From: a virus
Lineage: Duplodnaviria; Heunggongvirae; Uroviricota; Caudoviricetes
Reading direction: 5' to 3' (one strand)
IMG/VR virus record: IMGVR_UViG_3300006099_000006
Location: 22,393-86,392 of that record
Length of the DNA: 64,000 nt
Each line of letters starts with the position of its first letter. Position 1 is the stretch's first letter. Positions 14,409-31,596 of this stretch are shown piece by piece. The notes under the pieces were generated by a model that saw nothing but the letters and a program-made list of their open reading frames with translations, was not told the DNA's origin and did not search any database. Position numbers and translations under genes: made by a program.

Positions 14409-14735
14409 ATGAGATTTGACAGCAAAAAGGTATTCAAGTTTGCAGGAGAAGTTAGCGGTTGTGTCGTCATGGGAATTGTTTCAGCGGCAACGCAGACGCT
14501 TTGGTACAGAATCGCAGAACCCAAGATACTTAATGCTATGGACAAAAATGAGGCAAAGCGAAAGCGGCCAATAGGTTTTAGGGGGGGGCCTAACAGGGGC
14601 TCTTCCCTTTTGCGCGAATTTAACAACATCCTTTATGGAAAGGTGAACATATGCGAGACGGTATGTTCTGAAAAAGGTGTTGCCCTTGAAGGTTTAGCTG
14701 ACGGCTATCGAGGTACGGAGCAACTTAATGGTTAA
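14409..14735 (+). CDS. array gene, membrane protein. The C-terminus probably read-through caused by a G8 tract.
   Basis: Box TATTATGGAGGTGATCGCT then ATG. The frame runs through the non-coding repeat copy B. One extra G would restore a TAA at the position homologous to the stop of gene 7665. Confidence 0.4.
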   Translation: MRFDSKKVFKFAGEVSGCVVMGIVSAATQTLWYRIAEPKILNAMDKNEAKRKRPIGFRGGPNRGSSLLREFNNILYGKVNICETVCSEKGVALEGLADGYRGTEQLNG

Positions 14736-14798
14736 ACGGCGAGCCGCCTGTCTTTCTTTTGTTCTCGCAGATTCTGCAAATTCCTTTATGGAGAGGAA
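14590..14798 (+). repeat. 210-bp direct repeat, copy B
   Basis: Near-identical to 7942-8151. The hairpin stem GAGCCC is replaced by a G8 run at 14582-14589. Confidence 0.7.
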
Positions 14799-14950
14799 GA
14801 ACCTGAGAAGGATACGAAATGCGTCTTTAGGCCAACCGAGCGCCCTTGAAAAGGGACTGAGAAGTTACGAAATGCGCCCTAAAGCCAACCGAATGTTCAA
14901 CCTCTCTAATGTTTTCACCTTCCGCAGATTTTGCAAATCGTATTATGGAG

Positions 14951-15023
14951 AGGAAGTTAGCTCAGTTGGTAGAGCGACGGGTGAAATTCCCGTAGGTCAT
15001 CGGTTCGAGTCCGATACAGCCTC
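14951..15023 (+). tRNA. tRNA-like gene with a canonical D-arm and T-arm but a non-canonical anticodon loop and acceptor stem
   Basis: D-arm is TAGCTCAGTTGGTAGAGC and T-arm is ATCGGTTCGAGTCCGAT. The anticodon stem ACGGG/CCCGT carries loop TGAAATT, which lacks U33. The acceptor stem pairs at 5 of 7 positions. It is preceded by the TTTTGCAAATCGTATTATGGAGAGG box. Confidence 0.45.
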
Positions 15024-15050
15024 TCTAAATTTTTTTTGAGAAGGGATATA

Positions 15051-15263
15051 GTGAAACGAATTTTGAAAAATGAAATAGGCCGTTGTAAGTATTGCGGAAG
15101 TAGTGTCGTTATAAGTCCTTTTACTGTAGGACATGGCAAAAAACGACGTATTGCTTACGGAGGAGCATGTTGCAATAAATATTGCGGTCGTAGGACAGCC
15201 GGGGCATACACCAAAGAGAAAGCAATACCTCTTATTAAAAATTGGGGCATATTAGCAAATTAA
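15051..15263 (+). CDS. zinc-ribbon protein, 70 aa (GTG start)
   Basis: CKYCGS...ACCNKYCG; AT-rich. Confidence 0.4.
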   Translation: MKRILKNEIGRCKYCGSSVVISPFTVGHGKKRRIAYGGACCNKYCGRRTAGAYTKEKAIPLIKNWGILAN

Positions 15264-15283
15264 CCCGAAAGGAGTAATTCAAA

Positions 15284-15742
15284 ATGGAAGTCAAAATCGT
15301 AGGAGAAGTCAGATTCAAGAACCGAGTCCTCAAGGTGTATGGGGATCTGGATGCGCCTCTCTTCAAGGCTGCGGACGTCGCCGATCTGGTGGAGTACGGC
15401 GAGGGTAACGTCTGGAACCTTGTTCGCCTCTGCGAGGAGGACGAGCATATGCTCCTTCCGCTCGTAGTCGCTGGCCAGAAGCGGCAGGTAACCTTCATTA
15501 CCGAAACCGGCCTGTATAATGTCCTGTCCCAAAGCAGAAAGCCTCTCGCCAGGGCGTGGCGGCGCGTTATCCATGAGGAGCTTATCGCGCTCCGGAGGTC
15601 TCAGGGTAAGAACGTCTCTGAGAAGTTTGACGAGTGGGACCACATGGCCGACAACATCTACTTCGACGAGGAGCGGGGCTGTCTGATGCGCTCTGTGACC
15701 GTCCAGGGCGGTGATGTCGAGCAGGTGCCGTTCGAGCCCTGA
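15284..15742 (+). CDS. BRO-N domain protein (antirepressor-like), 152 aa
   Basis: FKAADVADLV....ITETGLYNVLSQSRKPLARAWRRVIHEEL matches the BRO-N pattern. Confidence 0.65.
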   Translation: MEVKIVGEVRFKNRVLKVYGDLDAPLFKAADVADLVEYGEGNVWNLVRLCEEDEHMLLPLVVAGQKRQVTFITETGLYNVLSQSRKPLARAWRRVIHEELIALRRSQGKNVSEKFDEWDHMADNIYFDEERGCLMRSVTVQGGDVEQVPFEP

Positions 15743-15753
15743 CTGATATTCTC

Positions 15754-16110
15754 ATGAAACCTGAAATCGGATACGACCGTATCGTGATAGGGTCTTACAT
15801 CAATGACCTTCTTGAAGGCGTTGAGTGGAACTTAAAACGTACGGCATTGCGGGACCCGTACTTCAACCAGTTAAGCGTCGAGAAGTTCACGCTTGAAACA
15901 CTTCTTCAGGAGCTCGGAGAACATGGCGAAATTTCGCCAACCGATTTGATAGAGCGGTTTGTGCAGAAAGCAAACAAGTGCGCTGTTGAAAATCAGGACA
16001 CCAACAGCAACTACACATTTTCGGTATCAAGGGACACAGCAATGTCCGTTCTTGACGGACTGTATTTTGGTTTCCTGGAAGGAGAAACGCGCAGTGGATT
16101 TGATCCATAA
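15754..16110 (+). CDS. hypothetical, 118 aa
   Basis: ORF with the start overlapping the previous stop. Confidence 0.5.
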   Translation: MKPEIGYDRIVIGSYINDLLEGVEWNLKRTALRDPYFNQLSVEKFTLETLLQELGEHGEISPTDLIERFVQKANKCAVENQDTNSNYTFSVSRDTAMSVLDGLYFGFLEGETRSGFDP

Positions 16111-16134
16111 AACTAAAAAGGAGGTATCCAAAAG

Positions 16135-16959
16135 GTGAAACCCAAGAAAAGTCTGGTAAACCGGGCGGGAAAAGCTTTGAAACGGGCGTCGCCAACCATA
16201 CTGAGTTGTCTCGGTGCTTTTGGTGTAGTGGCGACTGCGATCCTGGCAATCAAAGCAACGCCCAAAGCCCTTGAGTGCATCGAGGACGCAAAAGAAACAA
16301 AAAGCCCCGGAAATGGCGAAAACCTGACCCGATTGGAGACGATAGCGGCTTGCTGGCAATGCTACATCCCTGCCACAGTCACTGGAATCGCTACAATCGG
16401 GTGTATTTTCGGCGCAAATGTGCTGAATCGCCGTCAGCAGGCCTCTCTCACCAGCGCCTACGCCCTGCTCAACCGAACGTACCAGGACTATCAGAAGTCT
16501 GTGAAAAACGTATTCGGCGAGGAAGGACATCGGCGTGTTTTGGAGGACATGGCCATTGAGCGGGTCTCTGAAAATCACACGATTTATACTCAGGGATCGT
16601 TTGAATGCACCACGCTGGATTTCTGCGTCTCTGAGGAGGAGCATCTCTTCTACGACACCTACTCTGACCGGCAGTTCGCATCAACCATCGGAAAGGTTCT
16701 CCAGGCCGAGTATCATTTGAACAGGATGTTCGCCCTTAACGGTAATGCATCGCTCAATGACTTCTATAAGTACCTGGGCCTCGGCCCTGTTACGGACGGG
16801 GACGACATCGGATGGTGGGTCGACCCCAATGAAGAAATTTACTGGGTCGAGTTCAACCATTCCGTTGCCCACATCGACGATGGCCCCGAGCGGCCTCAGG
16901 TGGACTGCCTTATCATCGAATTTCCTCATCCTCCGTGTCCGGCTCCTCCCGATTGGTAA
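16135..16959 (+). CDS. membrane protein, paralog A, 274 aa (GTG start)
   Basis: RBS AAGGAGG. Basic N-terminus, a TM helix, then conserved ATPKAL and W.CY.PA.VTG motifs shared with 17539 and 19530. Confidence 0.65.
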   Translation: MKPKKSLVNRAGKALKRASPTILSCLGAFGVVATAILAIKATPKALECIEDAKETKSPGNGENLTRLETIAACWQCYIPATVTGIATIGCIFGANVLNRRQQASLTSAYALLNRTYQDYQKSVKNVFGEEGHRRVLEDMAIERVSENHTIYTQGSFECTTLDFCVSEEEHLFYDTYSDRQFASTIGKVLQAEYHLNRMFALNGNASLNDFYKYLGLGPVTDGDDIGWWVDPNEEIYWVEFNHSVAHIDDGPERPQVDCLIIEFPHPPCPAPPDW

Positions 16960-17004
16960 TCCGCAAAAATGACATCCTCTATTGTGGAAAGGAGGTAAGG
17001 CTTC

Positions 17005-17178
17005 ATGGATAAGAAAGCCATCTTTAGAGTAATGTCCATGATCGGAATGGTCCTTGGGGCGGCGGGAACGCTGCTGTCCAACTGGGCCGACGATCGTGAA
17101 CTCAACATGACGATTGACGAGAAGATCGATGAAAAGCTTGCCGCCCGTGAGAGCGAAGAAGAAAGTGAGGAGCCCTGA
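17005..17178 (+). CDS. small membrane protein, 57 aa, with acidic tail
   Basis: RBS GGAAAGGAGG. The stop lies in the loop of a GAGCCCTGACAGGGGCTC hairpin. Confidence 0.45.
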   Translation: MDKKAIFRVMSMIGMVLGAAGTLLSNWADDRELNMTIDEKIDEKLAARESEEESEEP

Positions 17179-17197
17179 CAGGGGCTCTTTGCTTTTG
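17170..17197 (+). terminator. terminator hairpin GAGCCC-TGACAG-GGGCTC
   Basis: The same module occurs at 7938 and (variant) 14582. Confidence 0.55.
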
Positions 17198-17215
17198 GAT
17201 GAGGAAGAACTGCAC

Positions 17216-17518
17216 ATGAACGAGCGGGCACTTGCGGCAATCGGTCAGGTTCTGGAAGGTTACACGGAGCCTCCCGGACTTGATTGGCCGAAACACGAAA
17301 AAGAAGAGGTCACATTTTCACACTGGGCGCTGGACGAAATCTTGCTCCTGGTGTGGGATCATCCGTGGACACTTGCATCTGAAACCATCGAAGCATTTGC
17401 CATGAAGCTGGAGGTCTTTGCGGCGACGGCCGTATCAGAAGACCAACGGCGGATATTTGCTGTCGCGGCCGAGACAGCTTGGGAGATGCTTGAAGAGGTT
17501 CAGTTGCTGGAATTTTAA
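17216..17518 (+). CDS. hypothetical, 100 aa
   Basis: Internal ATG of track ORF 17114-17518, located after the terminator. Confidence 0.5.
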   Translation: MNERALAAIGQVLEGYTEPPGLDWPKHEKEEVTFSHWALDEILLLVWDHPWTLASETIEAFAMKLEVFAATAVSEDQRRIFAVAAETAWEMLEEVQLLEF

Positions 17519-17538
17519 TGCTTGAAAGGAGAAGCAGC

Positions 17539-18300
17539 GTGAACAAGCAAACCATCGCCAAGGCGCTTAAGGATATTCCGAAGATCTTGAAACGGCATAG
17601 TCCTGAGCTCCTGACAGGCATCGGCATCGCCGGGATGATATTTACGACCATTTCGGCGGTGAAAGCCACCCCCAAAGCGCTTCAGCTCGTGGACGAACGG
17701 GAAATCAAGGAAGGAAAGCGCCTGACAAACTCCGAGATCGTCAAGACTACCTGGAAGTGCTACGTCCCCGCCGCCGTTACCGGGGTATGCTCTGTCGGGT
17801 GTCTGATCGGAGCAAGTTCTGTCAACGCGCGGCGCAATGCCGCCCTTGCCACGGCCTACACCATCTCTGAAACTGCTCTTAAGGAGTATAAAGAGAAAGC
17901 GGTCGAGGTCGTCGGCGAAAAGAAGGAACAGGCGATCCGGGATGCGGTCGCCAAGGAGAAGCTGGAAAAAGCGCATGTTAAAGAGCGGGAGTTCATCATC
18001 ACTGGGAAAGGTGAAACTCCCTGTTTTGACCCGCTTACCAATGCCTGCTTCAAGTCGGATATCGAGACCATCCGAAAAGCGGAAAACATCCTGAACAAAC
18101 GAATGCGGGATGAGATGCAGATCACGGTCAACGACTTCTTACAGGAGCTCGGCCTTGATCCTTGTGATGATGCCATCGGCGACAAGATGGGCTGGGACAT
18201 CGACAAGGGTTACATTGATCTGGACTTCAGCTCGCAGCTGGTCGATGGCATTCCCTATTTGGTCATCGGCCACCACAATCCGCCGAGATACCTCGGCTGA
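17539..18300 (+). CDS. membrane protein, paralog B, 253 aa (GTG start)
   Basis: RBS GAAAGGAGAAG then GTG. Same architecture as 16135 and 19530. Confidence 0.65.
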   Translation: MNKQTIAKALKDIPKILKRHSPELLTGIGIAGMIFTTISAVKATPKALQLVDEREIKEGKRLTNSEIVKTTWKCYVPAAVTGVCSVGCLIGASSVNARRNAALATAYTISETALKEYKEKAVEVVGEKKEQAIRDAVAKEKLEKAHVKEREFIITGKGETPCFDPLTNACFKSDIETIRKAENILNKRMRDEMQITVNDFLQELGLDPCDDAIGDKMGWDIDKGYIDLDFSSQLVDGIPYLVIGHHNPPRYLG

Positions 18301-18373
18301 CAGCATCCGCAAAAATAGCATTTCCTATTATGGAGAGATCCACATTACAATACTTTGATAAAGGAGAATCATC

Positions 18374-18667
18374 ATGGAAGAGAACACTGTGAAGACCAAT
18401 GAGATCGAGGAGTATGAGCAGCCTGAGACCGAGGTCGAGGAGGCCCTGGAGGAGAGCTCCGGCAGCGGCGCGTTCGTCGCGGGCATCGTCGGTGGCTTCT
18501 TGGCCTACGCCGCTATCGGCGGGGTGAAGAAGCTGGTGACGTTCGCCCAGATGAAGTGGGCCGAGCGGAAGCAGAAGGAGGCGGCCAAGACCGTGATCGA
18601 CGCCGAGTACACCGCGGTCGAGGAGGAGCAGGATGAGCCCGAGGAGGAAGCTCCTGAGGAGAAGTAA
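18374..18667 (+). CDS. acidic membrane protein, 97 aa
   Basis: RBS AAAGGAGAA. Confidence 0.55.
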   Translation: MEENTVKTNEIEEYEQPETEVEEALEESSGSGAFVAGIVGGFLAYAAIGGVKKLVTFAQMKWAERKQKEAAKTVIDAEYTAVEEEQDEPEEEAPEEK

Positions 18668-18757
18668 ACAGCGAGGATCGCCAAGGGGAGAGTACCTATG
18701 ACAGGTGCTTTCCCCTTTTCATTTCAACACCGCATTACGTTACAAGGAGGAACCACA

Positions 18758-19369
18758 ATGGCAGAGTACCCCGATAACTCTTATAGCGCACGGGAGCGCA
18801 AGCAGGACGGTTCCGGCCCTCCTGATAAGAAGCTGGAGAAGGTGGTAAGCGGCGGAACGAAGACCCGCAAAAAAAGTGAGGTCAAAAAGTTCGCCAACAT
18901 CTTCGTTCCGGAAGACACCGAGAATGTCAAGAGCTACATCGTAATGGACGTTATCGTCCCCGGCATCAAAAATGCGATCGCTGACGTTGTCAGCATTATG
19001 CTCTTTGGGGAATCCGGGCGTCTCGGTGGGCGAGGAGGCAAAGGCTCCCGTGTTTCGTACCAGAAGTATTACGACGACAGGCGTGATGACCGCCGAGACT
19101 ACGGGCGGCCGAGAGCTGCCGCTGGTTTCGAGTACGACGACATTATCTTCGAAACCCGTGGTGACGCCGATTTGGTCTTAGGTCAGCTTGAGGCGGCCAT
19201 TGACCAATATGGCATTGCGAGTGTCGCTGACCTGTACGACTTGGCCGGTATCACCTGCCGCAGCTATACGGCAAACAAATATGGCTGGACTGATATTCGG
19301 ACGGCCAAAGTAGTCCGCATCCGCGACGGCTACATTTTGCAGCTCCCGAGAACAGTTCAGATCAGCTGA
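18758..19369 (+). CDS. hypothetical, 203 aa (Arg/Asp-rich linker)
   Basis: RBS AAGGAGG then ATG at 18758, in the same frame as track ORF 18698. Confidence 0.6.
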   Translation: MAEYPDNSYSARERKQDGSGPPDKKLEKVVSGGTKTRKKSEVKKFANIFVPEDTENVKSYIVMDVIVPGIKNAIADVVSIMLFGESGRLGGRGGKGSRVSYQKYYDDRRDDRRDYGRPRAAAGFEYDDIIFETRGDADLVLGQLEAAIDQYGIASVADLYDLAGITCRSYTANKYGWTDIRTAKVVRIRDGYILQLPRTVQIS

Positions 19370-19381
19370 GGAGGGATCGCT

Positions 19382-19489
19382 ATGTGCGGATACCACACCT
19401 CGTTTGGATACAAAGGCCTGGTCAATGGCGAGTGGATGCTCTTCACTACCGAGGCCGAGTATCATGAGTATCTGCGTGAACTCAAGTAA
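19382..19489 (+). CDS. mini-protein, 35 aa
   Basis: RBS GAGGAGGG then ATG. Low confidence. Confidence 0.3.
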   Translation: MCGYHTSFGYKGLVNGEWMLFTTEAEYHEYLRELK

Positions 19490-19529
19490 ATCATCCAACA
19501 ACACAATCCGAAAGGAGTATATTTTAACC

Positions 19530-20492
19530 ATGAAAAAGAACGAGCTTATGAAGTCTGCGAGTCGGACTTTCAACAAGATCGGTTTCCAGATCCAGAAGAA
19601 GAGCCCTGAGCTCCTGGTTGCGGCCGGGATCGCCGGTATCGTCGTCAGCACCGTCATGGCGTGTAAGGCCACCATCAAGGCCTGCGAAGTTGCCGAGGAG
19701 GCCAAGGATACCATCGACGAGATCCACGAGATCGAGGAGAAGGGCGTCACCCGGGCCGGCAACACCTACTCCGCCGATGATGCCAAGAAGGATCTCACCA
19801 CCGCCTATCTCCAGACCGGCGTCAAGTACGTCAAGCTGTATGCCCCCGCTATCGTTGTGGGCGCGGCGTCTGTTTCCTGCATCCTGGTAAGCCACAAGAT
19901 GATGAAGCAGCGCATGGCTGCTGTTGCGGCGGCCCTCTCCGCCACGGACAAGGCCTTTAAGGACTACCGCGGCCGCGTTATGGAGCGTTTCGGCGAGCAG
20001 GTCGAGAAGGAGCTCCGCTACAACATCAAGGCCCAAGAGATCGAGCATACCGTTACCACCGAGAAGGGCAAGGAGAAGAAGATCAAAGAGGTGGCCGACG
20101 TGCCTGCGGTTGAGGGCTGGGACCCGTCTCAGTACAGCCCTTATGCGCGGAGATTTGACGAGACCAATCCGGCGTGGAACCGGGACCCCGAAATGACCCG
20201 CTATTATTTAAGGGCCCGCCAGTCCCAGGCCTGCGACATGCTTCGCTCCCGCGGCCATCTGTTCCTCAACGAGGTGTATGATATGCTGGGCTTCCCCCGC
20301 ACAAAGGCCGGTGCTGTTGTTGGGTGGCTGTACGATCCCAAGCGGCCTGAGCTGGGTGACTGCTATGTGGATTTCGGCATGTTCGAGATTCAGCAGGAAG
20401 ACGGTGTCGGCGGCTATGGCCAGTCCTTCATCCTTGACTTCAACGTCGTCGGCGATATTACGAACGACCTCGTCGACCATCAGTATGTTTGA
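19530..20492 (+). CDS. membrane protein, paralog C, 320 aa
   Basis: RBS GAAAGGAG; N-terminal segment SPELLVAAGIAGIVVSTVMACKAT. Confidence 0.65.
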   Translation: MKKNELMKSASRTFNKIGFQIQKKSPELLVAAGIAGIVVSTVMACKATIKACEVAEEAKDTIDEIHEIEEKGVTRAGNTYSADDAKKDLTTAYLQTGVKYVKLYAPAIVVGAASVSCILVSHKMMKQRMAAVAAALSATDKAFKDYRGRVMERFGEQVEKELRYNIKAQEIEHTVTTEKGKEKKIKEVADVPAVEGWDPSQYSPYARRFDETNPAWNRDPEMTRYYLRARQSQACDMLRSRGHLFLNEVYDMLGFPRTKAGAVVGWLYDPKRPELGDCYVDFGMFEIQQEDGVGGYGQSFILDFNVVGDITNDLVDHQYV

Positions 20493-20502
20493 GGTCGGGA
20501 CG

Positions 20503-21020
20503 ATGAAGAAAGTCGCATTGTTCCTGCTTGTCTTCATGCTGGTGGTCAATAATAACACGCCCCCCCCCCCGTTCCATCCATTGAACCTGTACCGGAATTG
20601 ACCGTGCAGGATCGTCACAACGATGATATTCCGTTCACCTACGAAGAGCAGGATTGCCTTTTAGCGGCTTGCGAAGAGTTTGATGTCCCCTATGCGTTGG
20701 CTTTGGGTCTCATTGAGAAAGAGACCAGGTTTCAAAACATTATCGGGGATGATGGCGCTTCTGCTGGCTATATGCAGATTCAGAAAAAATGGCATTGGGA
20801 GCGCATGGAGCGTCTCGGTGTGACAGATCTGATGGAGCCGAATGGAAATTTCAAAGTGGGGTGCGATTTTCTATCCGAGCTCCACGAAAAATATGGTGAT
20901 TGGGATTTGGCCTTGACTGTTTATAACATGGGCCATGACCCCGGATACATCACCAACTATGCCAAGGATGTCATGGAAAACTATGGCCATTGGCAAGAGT
21001 TGCTTCAAACCTACAAATAA
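20503..21020 (+). CDS. secreted lytic transglycosylase (SLT domain). The signal peptide and the catalytic domain are in different frames, split at a C11 tract.
   Basis: Signal peptide MKKVALFLLVFMLVV is in frame 1, up to 20601. The SLT domain, with E..ETRFQ...GASAGYMQI, is in frame 0, from 20556 to 21020. The junction is C11 at 20560-20570. A single -1 slip or one extra C would fuse them. Confidence 0.6.
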
Positions 21021-21037
21021 GAAAGGATGGGAACACC

Positions 21038-21136: not shown

Positions 21137-21142
21137 CCGGAG

Positions 21143-21292: not shown

Positions 21293-21295
21293 ACC

Positions 21296-21943: not shown

Positions 21944-21959
21944 AAAGGAGGCTTAAGCT

Positions 21960-22520
21960 TTGACCAAGAACGAGCTTGTCGATCGATATTTCGATTGGAT
22001 GTACCAGCTCGTGGTCGACAACCGATACTCTAAGTCCTATCACAAGCTGTTCGCCAGGCTGCATGACACGGACTTCAAGTACACGATTCCGATGGACGGC
22101 AACCGGGCCGAAGACGGCATCGACCTCAGATATCGGTTCGGTCGCGAGCATTCTTTCCCCGACGCTATGGTTGCGTCATTTTTGGATGACCGCCCGTGCA
22201 GCGTTTTGGAGATGATGACCGCCCTTGCTATTCGCTGTGAAGAGCACATCATGGATGACCCCGACATCGGCAACCGAACTGGACAGTGGTTCTGGAATAT
22301 GCTGGTCAATCTCGGGCTCGGCTCCATGGATGACGCCAAATTCGACAGGTACTATGTGGACAGGACCCTTGAACGGCTCTTGGAGCGAGAGTACGGACGT
22401 AATGGCGAGGGCGGACTCTTCACCGTCAACAACGGCCGCGATATGCGGAAAACAGAAATCTGGTATCAGATGAACTATTACCTCAGTGAGGTTATTAGAG
22501 AAGGGAGCGTCAGCATTTAG
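21960..22520 (+). CDS. hypothetical, 186 aa (TTG start)
   Basis: RBS AAGGAGG. Confidence 0.55.
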   Translation: MTKNELVDRYFDWMYQLVVDNRYSKSYHKLFARLHDTDFKYTIPMDGNRAEDGIDLRYRFGREHSFPDAMVASFLDDRPCSVLEMMTALAIRCEEHIMDDPDIGNRTGQWFWNMLVNLGLGSMDDAKFDRYYVDRTLERLLEREYGRNGEGGLFTVNNGRDMRKTEIWYQMNYYLSEVIREGSVSI

Positions 22521-22521
22521 T

Positions 22522-22773: not shown

Positions 22774-22781
22774 GCGGCTCA

Positions 22782-25700
22782 ATGTTAGACTTCTTGATGA
22801 TTGCAACGCGCAGCGGTAAACGCGGTATCATCGAGATCTATCCCAAGTTTATCATCAAGAAAAGCAACGACCTCATGATAAGAGGCGGCGATTTCTATGC
22901 CATTTGGATTGAGGAACGGGGATTATGGTCGACTGATGAACAGGATGCGGTCGACTTGATCGACCGTGAACTGGACCGTTACGCCGAAGAAAACCGCAAG
23001 CGTTTTGATGACAACATTCGCGTTCTGCACATGTGGGACGCTGAGACCGGCATGATCGACACCTGGCATCGCTACTGCCAAAAGCAGATGAAAGACCAGT
23101 TCCATATGCTCGACGAGAAGTTGATCTTTGCCAACACCAAGACCGGTAAGCGAGACTATGCCAGCAAATCTCTGGATTATCCTTTGGAAAAAGGGGATAC
23201 GCCGGCGTGGGATCGTCTTATCGGTACTTTATATTCTCCCGAGGAGCGTCACAAGATTGAATGGTGCATCGGAGCCATCGTCACCGGAGATTCCAAACGA
23301 CTGCAAAAGTTTATGGTGTTTTACGGAGCGGTTGGGACGGGTAAGAGTACCATCATCAACGTGATACAGCAGCTCTTTGAGGGATACTACACCAGCTTTA
23401 ATGCCAAGGATCTCGGGTCTTCCAGTAATGCATTCGCACTGGAGGCATTCCGTTCCAATCCGTTGGTGGCGATTCAGCATGACGGCGATCTTTCACGCAT
23501 TGAGGATAACACCCGCATCAACAGCTTGGTGTCCCATGAGATGATGACCGTCAACGAGAAGTTCCGATCTGCTTACTCCAACCGGTTTAAGGCGTTCCTT
23601 ATCATGGGCACCAATAAGCCTGTGAAGATTACGGACGCTAAATCCGGTATTATCCGCAGACTGATTGATGTGTCGCCAACTGGCAACAAAGTGCCGCCCA
23701 ACGAGTATCGAACTCTCACCAAGCAAATTCCCTTCGAGCTCGGCGGCATCGCCTATCACTGCCAGGAAGTATATTTGGAAGATCCGGATTACTATGACGA
23801 TTACATCCCCATCTCAATGCTCGGGGCCTCAAACGACTTCTACAACTTTGTCGTGGATTCTTACCATGTGTTCAAGCGGGAGGACGGCGTTTCTCTGAAG
23901 TCTGCTTGGGAGATGTATAAGACCTATTGCGATGACGCGAAGGTTTTGTATCCCTTGTCCAGAATGATATTTAAGGAGGAGTTGCGAAACTACTTCCGGG
24001 AGTATGAGGAACGATTCAACATGGACGATGGAACTCGTGTGAGAAGCTACTATCACGGGTTTCGGACGGAGAAGTTTGAAGAACAGACCCCCGATGAAAA
24101 GGAGGAACCGAAGAAAAAGTCAACCCCGCAGCCTACGATTGCCTTTGCAGAGGGGCAGTCGTCCATTTTTGATGCCCAGTGTGCAAATTGTCCGGCGCAA
24201 TATGCGGGCGAAGAAGGCACACCGCAAAGGAAATGGGAGCGGGTTCGCTCTAAACTCTCCTCGTTGGACACTTCCCGGCTCCATTATGTGAAACTTCCGG
24301 AGAATCACATCGTCATCGACTTTGATATTCCGGATGAACAGGGTAATAAGTCCTTTGAGCGGAATTTGGTCGAGGCCAGTAAGTGGCCAGCGACCTATGC
24401 AGAGGTGAGTAAAAGCGGCTGCGGAATTCATCTGCACTACATCTATTCCGGAGATGCGACGAAGCTCAGCCGGATCTATGATGACCACATCGAGATCAAG
24501 GTCTTCACTGGCAACAGCTCACTGCGCCGGAAGCTTTCAAAATGCAACAACCTACCTATCGCTACGATAAGCTCTGGGTTACCGTTGAAAGGAGAAAACA
24601 GCGTGGTAAACACCAAAGTGGTTCAAAGCGAGAAAGGGCTTAGACTCCAGATCAAACGCAATCTCAACAAGGAGATCCATCCGGCTACTAAGCCCAGCAT
24701 CGACTTTATCCATAAAATTTTGACGGATGCGTATGAAAGCGGCATGACCTACGATGTGACCGACATGCGTAACGCCGTCCTGGCCTTTGCGGCCAACAGT
24801 ACCAACCAAGCGGAATACTGCATCAAGTTGGTGAACAAGATGCCGTTCAAATCCGCCGAAGACGGGTCGGCAGTGAAAAACGACGATGCGAAATTGGTGT
24901 TCTACGACGTGGAGGTATTCCCGAACCTCTTCCTGGTGAACTGGAAGATCGAGGGCCCCAACCAAACCGTCGTGAGGATGATTAACCCGAAGCCCCAGGA
25001 GATCGAGGAGCTGATGAAGTTCCGCCTCGTCGGGTTCAACTGCCGCCGGTACGACAATCATATCCTCTACGCCCGTCTGATGGGCTACACGGAGGAACAG
25101 CTGTACAATCTGTCCCAAAAGATCATCAGCAGTGAGAAGAAGGCCAAAAGTAACAACTGCTTCTTTGGGGAGGCGTATAACGTCTCTTATACGGACGTAT
25201 ACGACTTCTGCTCCAAAAAGCAAAGCCTGAAGAAGTGGGAAATCGAGCTTGGGCTTCACCATCAGGAGTTAGGGCTTCCCTGGGATCAGCCGGTTCCCGA
25301 ACACCTTTGGCAGAAGGTCGCGGAGTATTGCGACAACGATGTTATTGCAACTGAGGCCGTGTTCAATGCCCGCAAGGCCGACTTTGTTGCCCGTGAGATT
25401 CTGGCCGACGTGGCCGGCATGACGGTAAACGACACCACCAACACCTTGACCACCAAAATTATATTTGGCGGGAACAAGAAACCCCAGGATCAGTTCAACT
25501 ACCGCGATATGGGGGATACAACTCAGATTTACGATCCCGACCGGGATCTGCCGTTTGAGATGGGCCCGAAGGAATTCGACGAGTTCACAGCCTTTGACAA
25601 GAAGGGCCGTCCCATCTTCCCTGGGTACAAGTTCGAGAATGGGAAGTCCATCTATCGTGGCGAGGAAGTTGGCGAGGGCGGTTATGTCTACGCCGAGCCG

Positions 25701-26900
25701 GGAATGTACGGGAACATTGCTCTGCTGGACATCGCCAGTATGCATCCGTCGAGCATCATCGCGGAGATCCTGTTTGGACCCGAATACACGAAACGGTTCC
25801 AGGAGATCCGTGACGCTCGTGTGGCCATCAAACACAAAGACTTTGAGAAGGCCAAGAAGATGCTGAATGGCGCGTTGGCAAAGTACCTAACCGATGAGGG
25901 CGCTGCTGCCGACTTGGCACAGGCGCTGAAGATCGCCATCAACTCTGTGTATGGTCTGACTTCGGCCGGCTTTGACAACCCCTTCCGGGACAATCGGAAC
26001 AAAGACAATATTGTCGCCAAGCGCGGAGCCCTGTTCATGGTCAACCTCAAACACGAGGTTCAGAAACGGGGCTTTACTGTTGCCCATATCAAGACCGACT
26101 CCATCAAGATTCCCGATGCCACGCCGGAGATCATTAAGTTCGTCATGGACTACGGCGAGAAGTACGGCTACACCTTTGAACATGAGGCCACCTATGACCG
26201 GATGTGCCTTGTGAACAACGCGGTCTACATCGCCAAGTACAAGGACAGCAAGCACGCCGGTGAATGGACTGCCACGGGCACGCAGTTCCAGATCCCGTAT
26301 GTGTTCAAGAAACTGTTCAGCCACGAGGAGATCACTTTCGAGGACATGTGCGAGACCAAGTCTGTAACCAGTGCTCTTTATCTGGACATGAATGAAAATC
26401 TGCCCAATGTTTCCGAATACGAAAAAGAGTATAAGGAACTCGCCGGATATTTGTCCACAACTTCTGGAGATGGTGGTCAATATGTCAGATTCGATGAGCT
26501 TGAGAAGCTTATTGGGCGGGGGCATAACTATGTCTTCGTGGGAAAGGTTGGTCAGTTCTGTCCGATGAAACCGGGCCACAATGGCGGTCTGCTCTTAAGA
26601 GAGGTAACTGACAAGAAAACCGGCGCAAAGAGCTATGCCGCGGCCACGGGGGCCAAAGGGTATCGTTGGCTGGAATCCGAGATGGTCAAGCATCTGGAGA
26701 AGGAGGATGGCATCGACCGGAGCTACTACGACGCTATGGTTGATGAGGCGGTCCATGATATTTCTCAGTTCGGAGATTTTGAATGGTTCGTATCTGACGA
26801 TCCCTACGTCCAGCCCAACCCCTCGAACGATACCCCGCCTTGGGAGACGCCCGGTGAGCCTTGGCAGGGGGAAGCGGCTGTGGCTTTCGATGCGAGGTGA
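22782..26900 (+). CDS. tripartite replicase, 1372 aa: N-terminal SF3/P4-D5-type NTPase, central AEP PrimPol, C-terminal family-B DNA polymerase with 3'-5' exonuclease
   Basis: Walker A motif GAVGTGKST. PrimPol motifs VIDFDIPDE and SKSGCGIHLHYIY. Exo I FYDVEVFPN, Exo II GFNCRRYD, Exo III YCDNDV. PolB motif A DIASMHPS, motif B KIAINSVYG, motif C KTDS. Confidence 0.85.
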   Translation: MLDFLMIATRSGKRGIIEIYPKFIIKKSNDLMIRGGDFYAIWIEERGLWSTDEQDAVDLIDRELDRYAEENRKRFDDNIRVLHMWDAETGMIDTWHRYCQKQMKDQFHMLDEKLIFANTKTGKRDYASKSLDYPLEKGDTPAWDRLIGTLYSPEERHKIEWCIGAIVTGDSKRLQKFMVFYGAVGTGKSTIINVIQQLFEGYYTSFNAKDLGSSSNAFALEAFRSNPLVAIQHDGDLSRIEDNTRINSLVSHEMMTVNEKFRSAYSNRFKAFLIMGTNKPVKITDAKSGIIRRLIDVSPTGNKVPPNEYRTLTKQIPFELGGIAYHCQEVYLEDPDYYDDYIPISMLGASNDFYNFVVDSYHVFKREDGVSLKSAWEMYKTYCDDAKVLYPLSRMIFKEELRNYFREYEERFNMDDGTRVRSYYHGFRTEKFEEQTPDEKEEPKKKSTPQPTIAFAEGQSSIFDAQCANCPAQYAGEEGTPQRKWERVRSKLSSLDTSRLHYVKLPENHIVIDFDIPDEQGNKSFERNLVEASKWPATYAEVSKSGCGIHLHYIYSGDATKLSRIYDDHIEIKVFTGNSSLRRKLSKCNNLPIATISSGLPLKGENSVVNTKVVQSEKGLRLQIKRNLNKEIHPATKPSIDFIHKILTDAYESGMTYDVTDMRNAVLAFAANSTNQAEYCIKLVNKMPFKSAEDGSAVKNDDAKLVFYDVEVFPNLFLVNWKIEGPNQTVVRMINPKPQEIEELMKFRLVGFNCRRYDNHILYARLMGYTEEQLYNLSQKIISSEKKAKSNNCFFGEAYNVSYTDVYDFCSKKQSLKKWEIELGLHHQELGLPWDQPVPEHLWQKVAEYCDNDVIATEAVFNARKADFVAREILADVAGMTVNDTTNTLTTKIIFGGNKKPQDQFNYRDMGDTTQIYDPDRDLPFEMGPKEFDEFTAFDKKGRPIFPGYKFENGKSIYRGEEVGEGGYVYAEPGMYGNIALLDIASMHPSSIIAEILFGPEYTKRFQEIRDARVAIKHKDFEKAKKMLNGALAKYLTDEGAAADLAQALKIAINSVYGLTSAGFDNPFRDNRNKDNIVAKRGALFMVNLKHEVQKRGFTVAHIKTDSIKIPDATPEIIKFVMDYGEKYGYTFEHEATYDRMCLVNNAVYIAKYKDSKHAGEWTATGTQFQIPYVFKKLFSHEEITFEDMCETKSVTSALYLDMNENLPNVSEYEKEYKELAGYLSTTSGDGGQYVRFDELEKLIGRGHNYVFVGKVGQFCPMKPGHNGGLLLREVTDKKTGAKSYAAATGAKGYRWLESEMVKHLEKEDGIDRSYYDAMVDEAVHDISQFGDFEWFVSDDPYVQPNPSNDTPPWETPGEPWQGEAAVAFDAR

Positions 26901-26907
26901 AACAACG

Positions 26908-27294
26908 ATGGCTGATTTTACTCATTGTGATAGCGAATTTGTCGAAGTTGGTGAGGATCTTGATATGACGAACTTCGGTGCCGTAAAAACCTTGCCGCTC
27001 TCCCCCATCAAATATGTTCCTCCGGATATTACCCGAGAACTTTCTATGTTGGAGCAATATGCTCAGAAAGGAGAAAAGATGGTAAAAGTAGGAACGAAGG
27101 TTATCTTCAACGGCAGTAAAACCATCATCCTCTGGAGTGACGGCACAAAGACTATTGCCACCTGTGGCGAGGGCGATAGCTTTGATCCCTATACCGGCTT
27201 CTGTGCTGCCGTTGTGAAGCGGGTCTTTGGCTCTACTGGCACTGCAAAGCGTGCCTTGAAAAAGGCGAACAACGTGAAAGAAGAGGATGCCTAA
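26908..27294 (+). CDS. hypothetical, 128 aa
   Basis: RBS GAGGTGA. Confidence 0.6.
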   Translation: MADFTHCDSEFVEVGEDLDMTNFGAVKTLPLSPIKYVPPDITRELSMLEQYAQKGEKMVKVGTKVIFNGSKTIILWSDGTKTIATCGEGDSFDPYTGFCAAVVKRVFGSTGTAKRALKKANNVKEEDA

Positions 27295-27333
27295 CAGGTG
27301 TCCTCTTTTATATTTTTGAAAGGAGAAAAACTC

Positions 27334-27534
27334 ATGAGCAAGTTTGTTCAGTTCTTCGCGAAAGGCATCATCTACGACCGGGATAAGAAGGGCCGTCCCT
27401 GCGGCATCAAGGAGAGCCGCAAAAAAGGGGGCGTAACTCTCGGTAACGCCGACCTGATGGGCAAGGTGTTTATGCAGTGCCCGGATCTGCTTCCGTGCGA
27501 CTGGGTGGAGGTCGAAACCTGTCCCATCGGGTAA
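27334..27534 (+). CDS. small Cys-containing protein, 66 aa
   Basis: TATATTTTTGAAAGGAGAAAAACTC then ATG. Confidence 0.5.
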   Translation: MSKFVQFFAKGIIYDRDKKGRPCGIKESRKKGGVTLGNADLMGKVFMQCPDLLPCDWVEVETCPIG

Positions 27535-27581
27535 ACAATCACTTACCTGCCAATCCAACAAACAGAAAGGAGACCTGACTT

Positions 27582-28073
27582 ATGGCTAACCCCAGGGTCA
27601 CTGAAAACCTCAAAATCGAAAACGCTCACATCCTGTTCCGGAACTTCTCCGGCCGGGAGAGCAAGTACAACCGCGCCGGTCAGCGCAACTTCTGCGTCTA
27701 CATCGACGATCCGGCGGATGCACAGCGGCTCATCGATGACGGCTGGAACGTCCGTGTTCGGCCGCCGCGTGAGGAAGGGGACGAGCCGCGCTACTACATC
27801 CAGGTGGCCGTCAGCTTCAGCAACATCCCGCCCTCTGTCTATATGCTCACCAAGCGGAAGAGGGTGCAGCTGGACGAGGAGTCCATCGACGTCCTGGATA
27901 TCGCCGAGATCCGCAGCATCGATCTAACTATCCGTCCCTATAACTGGGTTATCCAGGAGGGTACCAAGAACGAGAAGAGCGGCGTCAAGGCCTACCTGCG
28001 TTCCATGTACGTCGTCATCGACGAGGATGAGTTCGCTGAGAAGTACGCTGGCGACGAGTATCCCCAGGAGTAA
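27582..28073 (+). CDS. hypothetical, 163 aa
   Basis: RBS GAAAGGAG. Confidence 0.6.
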   Translation: MANPRVTENLKIENAHILFRNFSGRESKYNRAGQRNFCVYIDDPADAQRLIDDGWNVRVRPPREEGDEPRYYIQVAVSFSNIPPSVYMLTKRKRVQLDEESIDVLDIAEIRSIDLTIRPYNWVIQEGTKNEKSGVKAYLRSMYVVIDEDEFAEKYAGDEYPQE

Positions 28074-28148
28074 GGCATGTGCAGGGGCGCTGGTTAGGAG
28101 GTGACTGGCGCTCCTGTTCTTTGCTTTGATATTTGAAAGGGGGAGGAT

Positions 28149-28520
28149 TTGGTGTCTATGGACTATTCCTACTACAACCAAGCCTTCGTTGATGGCTTGA
28201 AAGCATTTTTGGATTACACCGCTCCCGATTCATTACGCAATAATGTAAAAGAGGGGCTCGTTGTACGACGGCGTTTGCAAAAGCAAGATTTTGAAAAGCG
28301 CTGCATTCAAAGATGGGCTATATCTCAGTTGGCCGAGTCAATTATCAACAATCCGAGTGATCCCATTGAGGACACGACCTACAAACTGGCATTAAAGCTG
28401 CTAAGTTTTGCAGTTGACTCTACTAATCCAAATGTAAGGAACGTGTTTTCAATTGCTGCGGCTTTTATTGAAGACGAGGTCATAAATCCCTTCCGAGAAA
28501 AAGCCGGAATATACCCATAA
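28149..28520 (+). CDS. hypothetical, 123 aa (GTG start)
   Basis: RBS GGGGGAGGA. Confidence 0.5.
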   Translation: MVSMDYSYYNQAFVDGLKAFLDYTAPDSLRNNVKEGLVVRRRLQKQDFEKRCIQRWAISQLAESIINNPSDPIEDTTYKLALKLLSFAVDSTNPNVRNVFSIAAAFIEDEVINPFREKAGIYP

Positions 28521-28543
28521 CTGTTTTCGCAAAGGAGAAAAAG

Positions 28544-28864
28544 ATGCAAAATAAGAAATCTCCGCGAAATTCTGGCAAAGTAATCCTGAAAAAAGAGGAG
28601 TGCTATTGCAACCTTGCCGAGTTATATGACGCCATTGCGATAAAATTGGGCCACAACCCCGCATTGGTTGCTTATGACTGCCGCAAGATATGCGTGACAA
28701 CTCCTGTGATGGAGGAAGTATTTTCGTATTACAAAGCCAGATACCGCGTAACAAGGGCAGCATTTAATCAGCTTTGGCTCAATTTAGGCCCTAAAGCTAA
28801 TCTCGTCGGGAGTGACTATATCGCTCAAATTGAAAGCGGATTCTTTTTGGAGGTCAGGCCATGA
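28544..28864 (+). CDS. hypothetical, 106 aa
   Basis: RBS AAAGGAGAAAAAG. Confidence 0.55.
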   Translation: MQNKKSPRNSGKVILKKEECYCNLAELYDAIAIKLGHNPALVAYDCRKICVTTPVMEEVFSYYKARYRVTRAAFNQLWLNLGPKANLVGSDYIAQIESGFFLEVRP

Positions 28865-29334
28865 AAAAGTCTTTCTGGCGGCATTTTCGACTTCCAAGAA
28901 AACGTAAGCCAAAACCCGTAGAGTTGGTAGTTTACAAGCCGCCCCAAAAGCATATGACCGAGCCTGACCGTTGGATACCGCCGTTTGCGACCAAGAAAGA
29001 AGAACCCCTCAAGGTTGACAAACAGGATTTGATTGTTGTAAATGAATCGCCTGAGTTCGATCTTGGCAGAGTTACGGCGACAGTTGGTGTCCTGTTGCAG
29101 GCGAGAATGGACTACAACTTTCAAGCTTTCGTTGATGAATGCCTCGAACGCTACAAACACTCTGATTGGGGCGGTGTAAACGAAAAGGAAAGACGATTGA
29201 ACGACCTCAGGCTCTCAGCTCAGACAGGCGCCATTTATGGCATTTATACCTATCTTGGTTCCGGGGAACAAATCTGGATCGCCACTGATTTAGATCAAGG
29301 CATCACAAAGATTTGTCTGTCCGAAGAACGCTGA
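28861..29334 (+). CDS. hypothetical, 157 aa (basic N-terminus)
   Basis: ATGA overlap with the previous gene. Confidence 0.55.
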   Translation: MKKSFWRHFRLPRKRKPKPVELVVYKPPQKHMTEPDRWIPPFATKKEEPLKVDKQDLIVVNESPEFDLGRVTATVGVLLQARMDYNFQAFVDECLERYKHSDWGGVNEKERRLNDLRLSAQTGAIYGIYTYLGSGEQIWIATDLDQGITKICLSEER

Positions 29335-29347
29335 AAGAGGTGGTGTC

Positions 29348-30370
29348 ATGAGTTCATTCTGGCAAAAATCGCCTAAGAAAAGCAAGAAGAAAAAGCGAAA
29401 ACCAAAGGCTGCACCGCAAGAAAAAGCTTTACAGACGATTCCTAAAGCAAAGCCCACGCCTTGGGTTCCTCCGCATCCCATAATACCAAGCACCCCAACC
29501 ATTGAGGGTAGATTCATCGCAAAGCCCTCAGTAACCCATCAAGTGCCGACCATCCCGGAAGTCAAAGAGAAGATCCCGATTACAACTTCGCATCCTAAGC
29601 AGAAAAACATTCGTCGCAAAAGCGAACAAGTACGGAAAGATTTCCTGAAAACGTTTGAAGCTTTAACCCATCGTTGGCGCTCCTGGGATATTTGGACCGA
29701 TTTCGTCACCCTTGTCGCTTGCACTATCTCAAACTCGGTGGACAAGCTCCACTTTGAAGGGCGAGAAAAGACCTACCTTCGCATCATCAATAAGTACAAC
29801 AAGGAGGAGCGAGAGCTTTTTCCAAAGCTATTTGCCTATGTGGTCCTCGCATTGGAGGAGAATCCTGAGCAGGACTTCCTTGGTGATATTTACACGGAGC
29901 TTGGACTGAACAGTAAAGAACACAAGCAAATATTTACACCCTATCACATTTGTCAGTTGATGTGCGAGGTAACCTTTGGGAACCTTGCAGAAGAGGTTGA
30001 TAAAAAGGGCGTCGTTGAAATTCACGACTGCTGCTGTGGAGCTGGAGCGACCCTGATTGCAGCGGCAAACGTGGCGAAGTACAAGCTCACAAAAGCCGGC
30101 CTCAACTATCAGAATCATATTTTAATCACAGGCCAGGATATCGATTATCTCGTAACTATGATGTGCTACATTCAGCTCTCATTGCTCGGGATGGCTGGAT
30201 ATTTCAAAGTCGGTAATGCCCTAACCGATCCGATGACGGATAATGATAGTTTGGAAAACTATTGGTTCACACCGATGTACTTCTTCCCTGTTTGGCATTA
30301 TCGAAGAATCTGGCACAGTATCGGCGAACTCTTGGGAGGCGAACCAAATGCAGAAGTTCACGAAAATTGA
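29348..30370 (+). CDS. truncated N6-adenine methyltransferase-like protein, 340 aa. It has the FTP and motif-I regions but no NPP[FY] catalytic motif.
   Basis: QIFTPYHICQLMCEV is motif X. HDCCCGAGATL is motif I. GQDIDYLVTMMCYIQLSLLG...GNALTDP matches N6_Mtase up to the point where NPPF is expected. Lys-rich N-terminus. Confidence 0.6.
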   Translation: MSSFWQKSPKKSKKKKRKPKAAPQEKALQTIPKAKPTPWVPPHPIIPSTPTIEGRFIAKPSVTHQVPTIPEVKEKIPITTSHPKQKNIRRKSEQVRKDFLKTFEALTHRWRSWDIWTDFVTLVACTISNSVDKLHFEGREKTYLRIINKYNKEERELFPKLFAYVVLALEENPEQDFLGDIYTELGLNSKEHKQIFTPYHICQLMCEVTFGNLAEEVDKKGVVEIHDCCCGAGATLIAAANVAKYKLTKAGLNYQNHILITGQDIDYLVTMMCYIQLSLLGMAGYFKVGNALTDPMTDNDSLENYWFTPMYFFPVWHYRRIWHSIGELLGGEPNAEVHEN

Positions 30371-30551
30371 AATTTCCTGGATCATCATTGAGCTCGACAA
30401 GGCGGCTGCCGAATTGAACCGCCTCGCAAATGAGCCGAACGACAGAGATTTCTCCAAAATGTATCGGCTCCGTTCTGAGCAATATGCCGACATTTCTCGG
30501 CGTCTTCGCTTGGCTCTCAAAAAGGGCAGTAAGCGAATCGAAATCAAGTAA
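30348..30551 (+). CDS. hypothetical, 67 aa
   Basis: RBS GGGAGG; overlaps the 3' end of 29348-30370. Confidence 0.45.
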   Translation: MQKFTKIEISWIIIELDKAAAELNRLANEPNDRDFSKMYRLRSEQYADISRRLRLALKKGSKRIEIK

Positions 30552-30611
30552 GTCACAGAATCGAGCAGCTAATCATGGCTGCTTATATTTTTGAAAGGAG
30601 AAAAATGAACA

Positions 30612-31126
30612 ATGAGCACTAATCATAAGCCTTCCCTTGAGGTCATCGAGCAGGGGTTGAAGGACGAGAGCTGGCGTGTGCGGGCTGCGGCCATGAACGC
30701 CTGCCAGGGCCGGGAGGTGCCCTTGAGGTCATCGAGCGGTGGTTGAAGGACGAGAGCTGGCGTGTGCGGGCTGCGGCCATGAACGCCTGCAAAGCCAACA
30801 ACATCCCCGTTCCGGTTATCCGGACGATTGAGCCGCCCGAACTGGTCTATAAGAAGTGCGTAGGCGGCATCATCGTTGTCGCTTCCATCCCCAAGGACGC
30901 ACAGATCCGCGGCAACTTCAACCACAAGTGCCGCGCCAGCAAGGCCGTTATCAAGGAGATCATCGGCGACCTCTGTGGGGAGCAGGTCGGTATTTCCAAG
31001 TATGACCTGAGAACCCTCTACTACGCCGGCGACGAGGTTGAGATCGACAACTTCGACTACAGCAATGAGGAGTGCTCCACCGGCTTCCACTTCTTCTGCA
31101 CAATCGAAGAAGCCCGGCGATACTAA
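30612..31126 (+). pseudogene. HEAT/PBS-lyase-repeat protein gene disrupted by an 86-bp tandem duplication
   Basis: ATG at 30612 in frame 0 reaches a stop at 30744-30746. The downstream part, 30743-31126, is in frame 2. Removing one 86-bp unit gives a continuous ORF of about 142 aa. Confidence 0.5.
30634..30805 (+). repeat. 2 x 86-bp tandem direct repeat
   Basis: Seen directly. Units 30634-30719 and 30720-30805 share a 71-bp core with 2 mismatches. Confidence 0.75.
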
Positions 31127-31144
31127 GCACTGGAGGGGATTAAT

Positions 31145-31596
31145 ATTTTAAGTCAGGCACTATTCTCTACGGGAAAGAATGATTGGGCAACGCCACAGGA
31201 GCTCTTTGATGAGCTTGATGCTGAGTTCCATTTCACGCTCGATCCCTGCGCTACTCCGGAAACGGCTAAGTGCGCTAAATTCTACACGGAAGAAGACAAC
31301 GGACTTGCCCAGGATTGGACTGGAGAGACGGTGTTCTGCAATCCTCCCTACTCTGACCAGCAACAGACCGAATGGGTCAAAAAGTGCTATGAACATGGAG
31401 TTCGGGGGGGGGGTAGCAGTTATGCTGATTCCGGCCAGAACCGATACGAAGCGTTTCCACGAGTACATTTATGGGAACGCGGAAATACGGTTTATCAAAG
31501 GCCGGTTGAAATTTGGCGGGTGTGAAAACTCTGCACCCTTCCCCTCCATGATTGTTGTATTCGGAAAAGAACCTGCTGAAAGGAGGCCGCGGCCAA
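31145..31596 (+). CDS. dam: phage Dam-type N6-adenine DNA methyltransferase (PF05869-like), frameshifted at a G10 tract. The C-terminal half continues in frame into the helicase ORF.
   Basis: N-terminal half in frame 2 reads WATPQELFDELDAEFHFTLDPCA...FCNPPYS. C-terminal half in frame 0 reads VAVMLIPARTDTKRFHEY...IRFIKGRLKF...APFPSMIVVF. The junction is G10 at 31404-31413. The start codon is uncertain; no ATG is available in frame 2. Confidence 0.6.

Follow-up and report, generated by a model that had tools for sequence, protein, structure and literature searches.

Length-variable G and C homopolymer tracts in the Dam methyltransferase and lytic transglycosylase genes of a temperate gut phage as probable contingency loci

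Contingency loci of phages, in which slippage at a simple-sequence repeat (SSR) switches a gene on or off, have been described only recently, in Campylobacter phages in 2021 and in T-even phages in a 2025 preprint. The present analysis concerns four long G or C homopolymer runs in IMG/VR record IMGVR_UViG_3300006099_000006 (Caudoviricetes), within a stretch of 64,000 nucleotides (nt; positions 22,393–86,392 of the record) that is referred to here as the window. One run lies in an orphan Dam DNA methyltransferase gene, one in a gene for a lytic transglycosylase (SLT) and two in small open reading frames (ORFs). These tracts are probably slipped-strand contingency loci that switch phage genes. 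They would extend the known kind of locus to a temperate phage of a gut Firmicute, in which an orphan Dam–helicase and an SLT with a predicted export signal are switched.

In Campylobacter phages, long polyG runs in phage ORFs are reported to vary in length, to shift genes into or out of frame and to give rise to phenotypic subpopulations of a single phage (Sorensen et al., 2021, Cell Rep 35:109214; cited in PMC12823448 and PMC11868660). The tracts described here are similar in kind but occur in a temperate phage of about 50% G+C with a probable Oscillospiraceae host, lie in an orphan Dam gene, an SLT gene and two small ORFs, and are known from sequence alone. The Campylobacter phages, in contrast, are reportedly lytic phages of an AT-rich Gram-negative host that carry their tracts in receptor-binding genes.

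In phages T2 and T4, a DNA-modification gene is turned on and off by slippage at a homopolymer (Gomez, Barrick and Waters, 2025, bioRxiv; PMC12633550), and the agt switch of T2 trades sensitivity to TgvAB against sensitivity to McrA/BC. Each T2 or T4 genome contains many SSRs, distributed over all gene classes; the runs are A runs of 6–9 nt, with variants at approximately 1e-4 to 1e-3 in reads (PMC12633550). The same on/off logic as in agt may apply to Dam, whereas the runs here are G or C runs of 8–11 nt, are strong outliers in their genome, have lengths fixed differently in each sample and come from assemblies. A third related system is that of the phase-variable bacterial DNA methyltransferases, or phasevarions (Srikhanta et al., 2005; reviewed in PMC11868660), in which an SSR within a methyltransferase ORF toggles genome-wide methylation. 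There the genes are the mod or hsd genes of chromosomal restriction–modification systems in pathogens, whereas here the gene is a phage-borne orphan Dam of family PF05869 that is predicted to be fused to a helicase.

Outlying G and C runs in the window

The four runs are as follows.
14581–14588, plus strand: run of eight G (G8)
20560–20570, plus strand: run of 11 C (C11)
31404–31413, plus strand: run of ten G (G10)
40800–40808, plus strand: run of nine G (G9)

All four are homopolymers of slippable size (about 7 nt or more) inside an ORF and stand apart from the remaining runs of the window. G runs number 3076, 570, 108 and 16 at lengths 2, 3, 4 and 5, are absent at lengths 6–7 and occur once each at lengths 8, 9 and 10, while C runs number 19 at length 5, one at length 6 and one at length 11. 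Under an order-3 Markov model approximately 0.3 G/C runs of at least 8 nt are expected and four are observed (Poisson p ~3e-4); for runs of at least 9 nt the values are approximately 0.06 and three (p ~3e-5). An earlier interpretation of the window from its letters and ORFs (the sequence-only reading) had located the C11, G10 and G9 runs exactly; the G8 run that it reported also exists, but at 14581–14588 rather than at 14582–14589.

Near-identical copies of the affected genes from many samples differ only in run length, which argues that the switching arises by replication slippage and not from sequencing error. The reading frame follows tract length, and lengths vary on identical backgrounds. 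For both Dam (over 850-nt flanks) and SLT (at 99.5–100% identity) the repeat number differs between near-identical genomes and decides whether the full protein is encoded; for Dam, the gene to which the dN/dS analysis applies, selection also maintains the gene. The sequence-only reading had set phase variation beside homopolymer sequencing error and had pointed to homologous phages as a check. The same tracts are indeed present in homologues, at lengths of G7–G11 in 25 Dam loci and C8–C11 in the SLT gene, and the comparison favours real heritable length variation.

The Dam and SLT genes

The Dam locus of the window comprises the following.
31145–31525, plus strand: N-terminal half of Dam as read in the window, with the PF05869 match and the DPCA and NPPY motifs
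31414–31595, plus strand: C-terminal half of Dam (VAVMLIPARTDT...PFPSMIVVFGKEPAERRPRP), sharing the frame of the helicase, from which no stop codon separates it
31596–32837, plus strand: SF2 helicase (phrog_62), with its own ATG and a Shine–Dalgarno (SD) sequence, GAAAGGAGG, at 31577–31585

The gene is broken exactly at G10, as had been claimed, and the tract codons read Arg-Gly-Gly (CGG GGG GGG G..). The half upstream of the run (frame mod3 = 2) contains GKNDWATP, DPCA and NPPY, and the half downstream (frame mod3 = 0) extends from VAVMLIPARTDT to PFPSMIVVF. Removal of one G produces a single PF05869 match across the junction (E 1.4e-30; 106.7 bits against a cut-off of 28.1) that covers residues 17–133 and includes both the DPCA and NPPY motifs; the restored protein also matches phrog_111 (E 7.5e-60). 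The frame is rejoined by G9, G12 or a +1 shift. The proposal that a single-nucleotide change would restore the protein is therefore sound (G9), but the −1 slip offered beside it is not, since the correction needed is +1. In the G10 state of the window the tract is followed by 38 out-of-frame codons and then TGA (OFF), and in the G8 state TAG follows the tract immediately.

No ATG, GTG or TTG start is available to Dam. In the window an ATT lies 6 nt past the SD sequence GGAGGGG (31132–31138), and in all relatives an SD sequence after the preceding TAA is followed 5–8 nt on by ATT or ATC at the homologous position; this conserved start suggests deliberately weak initiation. No stop separates the C-terminal half from the helicase (31414–31598) in any tract-bearing relative, and the G9 (ON) state is therefore predicted to encode a Dam–helicase fusion of about 565 amino acids (aa). 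In relatives that lack Dam (L011–L013) the helicase begins at the equivalent Met, and in the OFF states it would still be made from its own SD sequence and ATG. The closest database protein (P0135, 147 aa, 91% identical), a stand-alone phage Dam, shares the fold family and the DPCA, NPPY and ARTDT motifs, with Gly-Gly or Arg-Gly at the position of the tract. The stand-alone forms, to which the more distant Dam genes also belong, nevertheless lack a G run (..LRGRV.. or ..NGG..), start at ATG and have their own stop approximately 5–10 residues past ..VVF, whereas the window clade has ATT/ATC, the G run and no stop before the helicase.

Searches of IMG/VR and metagenome scans yielded 25 loci with the same tract, the window included. 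In the main clade (95–99% aa and approximately 82–97% nt identity) the tract is G7 in one locus, G8 in eight, G9 in five and G10 in five, including the window; in a second clade (88% aa identity) it is G8, G10, G11 (twice) and the A-interrupted alleles GGGGGGGAGGG and GGGGAGGG. The two halves are joined only in the five G9 copies, although G6 would also fit. One G9 locus (L054) shows no mismatch to three G8 loci (L061–L063) over 850 flanking nt, and another (L052) differs from a G10 locus (L074) by one mismatch in the flanks. The flanks of the six loci of the second clade are 0–1 mismatches apart, yet five alleles are found among them. Tract length thus evolves more rapidly than point substitutions accumulate. 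In SRR33855067, a Logan contig that matches the window at 99.94% identity has its first base within the G tract, which indicates a break of the assembly graph at this point and is an indirect sign of variation within the sample.

Selection on the two halves was assessed among out-of-frame lineages (the window, G10; L002, G8; L064, G10; L067, G10). The ratio of nonsynonymous to synonymous substitution rates (dN/dS) is 0.01–0.03 for both halves, with dS from 0.24 to 2.7; in the N-terminal half the window and L002 differ by one nonsynonymous and 25 synonymous changes. None of these lineages has a second frameshift or stop. The low ratio on both halves between out-of-frame lineages indicates that the gene is not decaying. 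Across seven haplotypes only 15 of 49 four-fold degenerate sites are invariant, and the three that fall within the run all remain G (p ~0.03); the uninterrupted tract is retained over approximately 15–18% nucleotide divergence. Purifying selection together with the invariant sites in the run indicates that Dam is kept functional while bearing the tract.

Some searches were uninformative. A protein search with the restored Dam gave no ON/OFF counts, its matches being dominated by stand-alone Dam proteins of 140–150 aa; gene callers are probably unable to start at ATT. Megablast against the INPHARED phages found no match to the Dam and SLT regions, and look-ups of the exact proteins of 30743–31126, 19404–20492, 18698–19369 and 40883–41932 found no contigs, probably owing to differences in the called starts. 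The window contains 271 GATC sites (observed/expected 0.79), so that GATC is not avoided. A 552-aa ORF (31179–32837), which reads the N-terminal half of Dam in an alternative frame and continues through the C-terminal half and the helicase, was considered as an overprinted product and rejected: the frame stays open in 37% of synonymous recodings, its ATG is not kept in the second clade and selection acts on the Dam frame. As a separate observation, human-gut contigs (L114–L119) contain AT-rich Dam homologues, 65% identical, whose frame is broken close to an A run (..TEKK/NAKC..) and again ahead of NPPY; L116 is unlike L114 at the first break. These breaks may be the A-run counterpart of the tracts described here, or the genes may simply be pseudogenes.

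The SLT gene of the window comprises the following.
20503–20601, plus strand: N-terminal part of SLT as read, with the signal or anchor peptide MKKVALFLLVFMLVV
20560–20570, plus strand: C11 tract in the SLT linker (..NNNT PPPP..), an OFF state
20571–21020, plus strand: SLT catalytic domain (PF01464), frame 0

The ATG at 20503 opens MKKVALFLLVFMLVV..NNNTPPPP in frame mod3 = 1, and nine out-of-frame codons past the tract a TGA ends this reading at 20601. The break lies exactly at C11, and C12, C9 or a −1 shift rejoins the putative signal peptide to the SLT domain, in agreement with the sequence-only reading. The domain matches PF01464 with 38.3 bits (cut-off 21.3), and the catalytic Glu motif GLIEKET is conserved in all SLT homologues, most of which are 200–220 aa long with the N-terminus in frame. 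Sequence features of the 17 full-length homologues include MKK followed by about 13 hydrophobic residues in all 17, and a lipobox-like VGISC in some. Possible internal starts in the window (TTG 20598 and GTG 20604) would give a product of 138–140 aa without a signal peptide.

An ENA contig (L032), approximately 97% identical, has C9 and encodes a 209-aa SLT (ON). Relative to this contig and to P0121, the window has a 114-nt (38-codon) in-frame deletion in the linker after 20541, which is common to all contigs of its haplotype. Within that haplotype (99.5–100% identical) the tract is C8 in one contig, C9 in four, C10 in 11 and C11 in one, the window itself; the C9 form encodes a 171-aa ON protein (P0132). 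Three backgrounds defined by single-nucleotide polymorphisms (SNPs) each have two lengths, C10/C11, C9/C10 and C8/C10. In the full-linker haplotype the 209-aa ON form is found on 88 contigs and the C10 and C8 stubs on about ten. Among the lengths seen, only C9 gives a full SLT (171 or 209 aa). Related SLT genes have tracts at two further positions of the N-terminal region, a G run at the end of the signal peptide (G8, ON, in L128; G13, OFF, in L033) or a C7 run in mid-linker, OFF, in IMG/VR contig 3300006133_000004 and in the Oscillospiraceae isolate MGBC000151. SLT genes have thus gained tracts independently at three positions.

Competing explanations

Several points weigh against slipped-strand switching as an account of these tracts. 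ON copies of Dam are the minority (five of 25 overall and none of the six in the second clade), and their share fits the one third expected at random (binomial p = 0.11). Some relatives do without Dam: L024 lacks it altogether, L066 has lost its N-terminal half, and a deletion of codons 1–35 can be read directly in L054, L057, L061 and L065 and is deduced for L062 and L063 from the matching alignment start at residue 36. As these deletions show, Dam is not essential. As the truncated product served as the look-up query, the survey of OFF SLT copies is biased. The singleton C11 of the window could be a miscount of C10; as both lengths are out of frame, the conclusion is unchanged whichever is right. 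Dam is assigned to PF05869, and its GATC specificity, like the secretion of SLT, is predicted from family membership and sequence features. Reversibility, which is read from homoplasy across SNP backgrounds, and the switching rate within one lineage are both inferred.

Part of this evidence would also fit neutral decay, in which the tracts are accidental hot spots, Dam and SLT are dispensable cargo, the OFF copies are pseudogenes and no switching is adaptive. Several relatives lack Dam, its 5′ end or its N-terminal half; OFF copies of Dam predominate and make up the whole second clade of six, with its two A-interrupted alleles; and the SLT haplotype of the window combines the extra 114-nt deletion with a predominance of C10. 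Decay is nevertheless regarded as unlikely, given dN/dS values of 0.01–0.03 for the Dam halves between OFF lineages at dS ~1, the lack of a second frameshift or stop anywhere in the Dam gene and the maintenance of an uninterrupted tract across approximately 15–18% nucleotide divergence; moreover, one SLT haplotype exists both ON and OFF and SLT tracts appear independently at three positions. Strong purifying selection in spite of mostly out-of-frame genomes could instead reflect recoding, with RNA polymerase stuttering or ribosomal slippage giving some full-length protein at any length and tract length tuning the dosage, so that 'OFF' genomes would be no more than leaky. Slippage could be by +1 on CCC-C or GGG-G, or by −1 at the GGG-TAG of the G8 allele. 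Frameshifting is favoured where a stop codon follows a slippery run, as TAG does directly in the G8 Dam allele; C10 is also the stable majority state of one SLT haplotype. The shift required, however, varies between alleles, being +1 for G10 and C10 and −1 for G8 and C11, and because the alleles need opposite shifts a single programmed frameshift does not fit. Tract length ranges from 7 to 11 and is unconserved, unlike that of a programmed site with a fixed length and one direction of shift, and most documented cases of transcriptional slippage in bacteria involve A or T runs. Recoding as the principal explanation therefore appears quite improbable, and leaky slippage could coexist with genetic switching.

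Homopolymers of 8–13 nt are error-prone on several platforms, and the observed lengths might be miscalls of a fixed true length that is in frame. The C11 of the window has been found nowhere else, and the break of the Logan contig in the G tract could reflect poor read quality. This explanation is considered highly improbable, since lengths that are not in frame recur in independent assemblies (11 contigs with C10, drawn from JGI and several SRA/ENA projects, and eight with G8), four to five different lengths span the range, the lengths co-segregate only partly with SNP backgrounds and interrupted alleles occur. Miscalls also leave unexplained the existence of the long runs and the three separate SLT sites.

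Under slipped-strand switching, mispairing in replication would gain or lose single G or C bases, so that the phage population would hold heritable in-frame (ON) and out-of-frame (OFF) variants of each gene. A G9 tract would allow a full orphan Dam to be made from the weak ATT/ATC start, reading into the helicase. A C9 tract would give a lytic transglycosylase with a signal peptide, and C8, C10 and C11 would give a short signal-peptide stub, at most accompanied by a signal-less 138-aa domain. We infer that such switching serves as adaptive bet-hedging. By analogy with agt of T2, methylated DNA would escape GATC-cutting restriction and unmethylated DNA would escape methyl-dependent restriction, a trade-off that may provide the adaptive rationale for Dam.

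Small ORFs, genomic context and significance

The other two G runs lie in small ORFs.
14409–14735, plus strand: small ORF with its C-terminus set by tract length (homologues in L134, L135 and L136)
40712–40858, plus strand: 48-aa two-helix membrane ORF with the G9 tract in frame (..TWWGGVVYW..)

The sequence-only reading had also placed G8 at a frame junction, which does not hold, as ORF 14409–14735 is not split but runs uninterrupted through the tract, which lies in its last codons. The tract forms the 5′ arm of a terminator-like hairpin (14580–14608) of 12 bp followed by UUUU, with a folding ΔG of −22 kcal/mol and a z of −2.8; a simple terminator scan gave no match at this site because the T tail is short. 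Immediately to the right of the tract begins an exact direct repeat of 210 nt (14589–14798 = 7942–8151). In both copies the repeat starts where a small gene ends in a terminator-like hairpin, and at 7942–8151 the gene terminates at a TAA in the hairpin loop. Homologues of the site have G8 (L031), G9 (L135) or G10 (L134 and L136). With G9 the ORF stops at the hairpin-loop TAA to give 62 aa, and with G10 or the G8 of the window it continues to 108–110 aa, with 110 aa in L134 and L136. The length of the tract thus sets where this ORF, next to the hairpin, stops. The G9 run at 40800–40808 was correctly described as in frame; it lies within the small membrane ORF. Near-identical relatives of this site were not obtained, and the sole homologue found (L138) has the same protein motif without the tract.

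The relatives have further long G runs, of G9–G11, at sites where the window has none (L031 15092–15100, L137 3642–3650 and L139 546–556). One of them, a G9, keeps the frame of a 66-aa ORF that precedes the ssDNA-binding gene, another G9 lies at a gene end and overlaps the SD sequence of the next gene, and a G11 occurs in contig 3300006201_000007. Tract density is 19.7 per 100 kb in relatives versus 0.9 in unrelated loci; as the related loci had been retrieved as regions surrounding tracts, this comparison is not used as evidence.

Long A runs were recorded at four places.
46769–46778: A10, looks intergenic
48287–48296: A10, looks intergenic
49758–49766: A9, looks intergenic
57703–57711: A9, looks intergenic

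The sequence-only reading had recognized these as non-coding runs but had started them at 46768, 48288, 49759 and 57700. Two of them (46769–46795 and 49758–49785) are followed immediately 3′ by CGGAGG and 11 nt further by ATG, an arrangement (A10-CGGAGG..ATG and A9-CGGAGG..ATG) that looks like a shared leader or ribosome-binding-site motif.

The genes of the window include an integrase, a 1372-aa primase-polymerase, an ssDNA-binding protein, a second N6 methyltransferase, a ligase, NrdD and a YonO-like RNA polymerase. Related contigs are 84–97 kb long, and one relative lies inside a 301-kb contig of a mouse-gut Oscillospiraceae isolate. The element is a temperate phage of roughly 85–97 kb and about 50% G+C, and its host family is probably Oscillospiraceae because the related prophage sits in that isolate. 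The tetranucleotide CTAG is nearly absent, with two sites (13275 and 41033) against 53.6 expected from trinucleotide content (observed/expected 0.04), which suggests strong counter-selection, for example by a CTAG-cutting host restriction enzyme. A HEAT/DUF5758 gene (30612–31126) is broken into 44 + 127 aa by a C3 at 30720–30722, within an imperfect tandem repeat (30634–30704 ~ 30720–30790); L024 has C4 at this site and an intact 171-aa product, and JGI contig L026 shares the frameshift of the window. JGI contig Ga0080702_1000627 (L131) is 99.9–100% identical to the window but lacks approximately 43 nt (at about 6990 in L131; window 24045–24087), which splits the primase-polymerase into 446 + 955 aa; the missing stretch may be a true deletion or may stem from the assembly.

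With unusually clear population-genomic support from metagenome data alone, the tracts would extend phage contingency loci to a temperate phage of an uncultured-type gut Firmicute. The Dam tract would offer a natural parallel to agt of T2, as a phage DNA-modification enzyme toggled at random. A practical lesson is that a frameshift at a long G/C run in a phage contig should be neither silently 'corrected' nor annotated as a pseudogene. Because many public mouse-gut datasets contain the phage and a cultured isolate carries a related prophage, the hypothesis can be tested directly. A more far-reaching reading, plausible but held with somewhat less than even confidence, is that the phage carries a 'phasome' of several independent homopolymer switches, governing SLT export and a weakly initiated orphan Dam that is made only in fusion with the helicase, with the SLT tracts at three positions in related phages created by selection for switchability. 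If this is true, one lysogen would release both methylated and unmethylated virions, hedging between restriction types.

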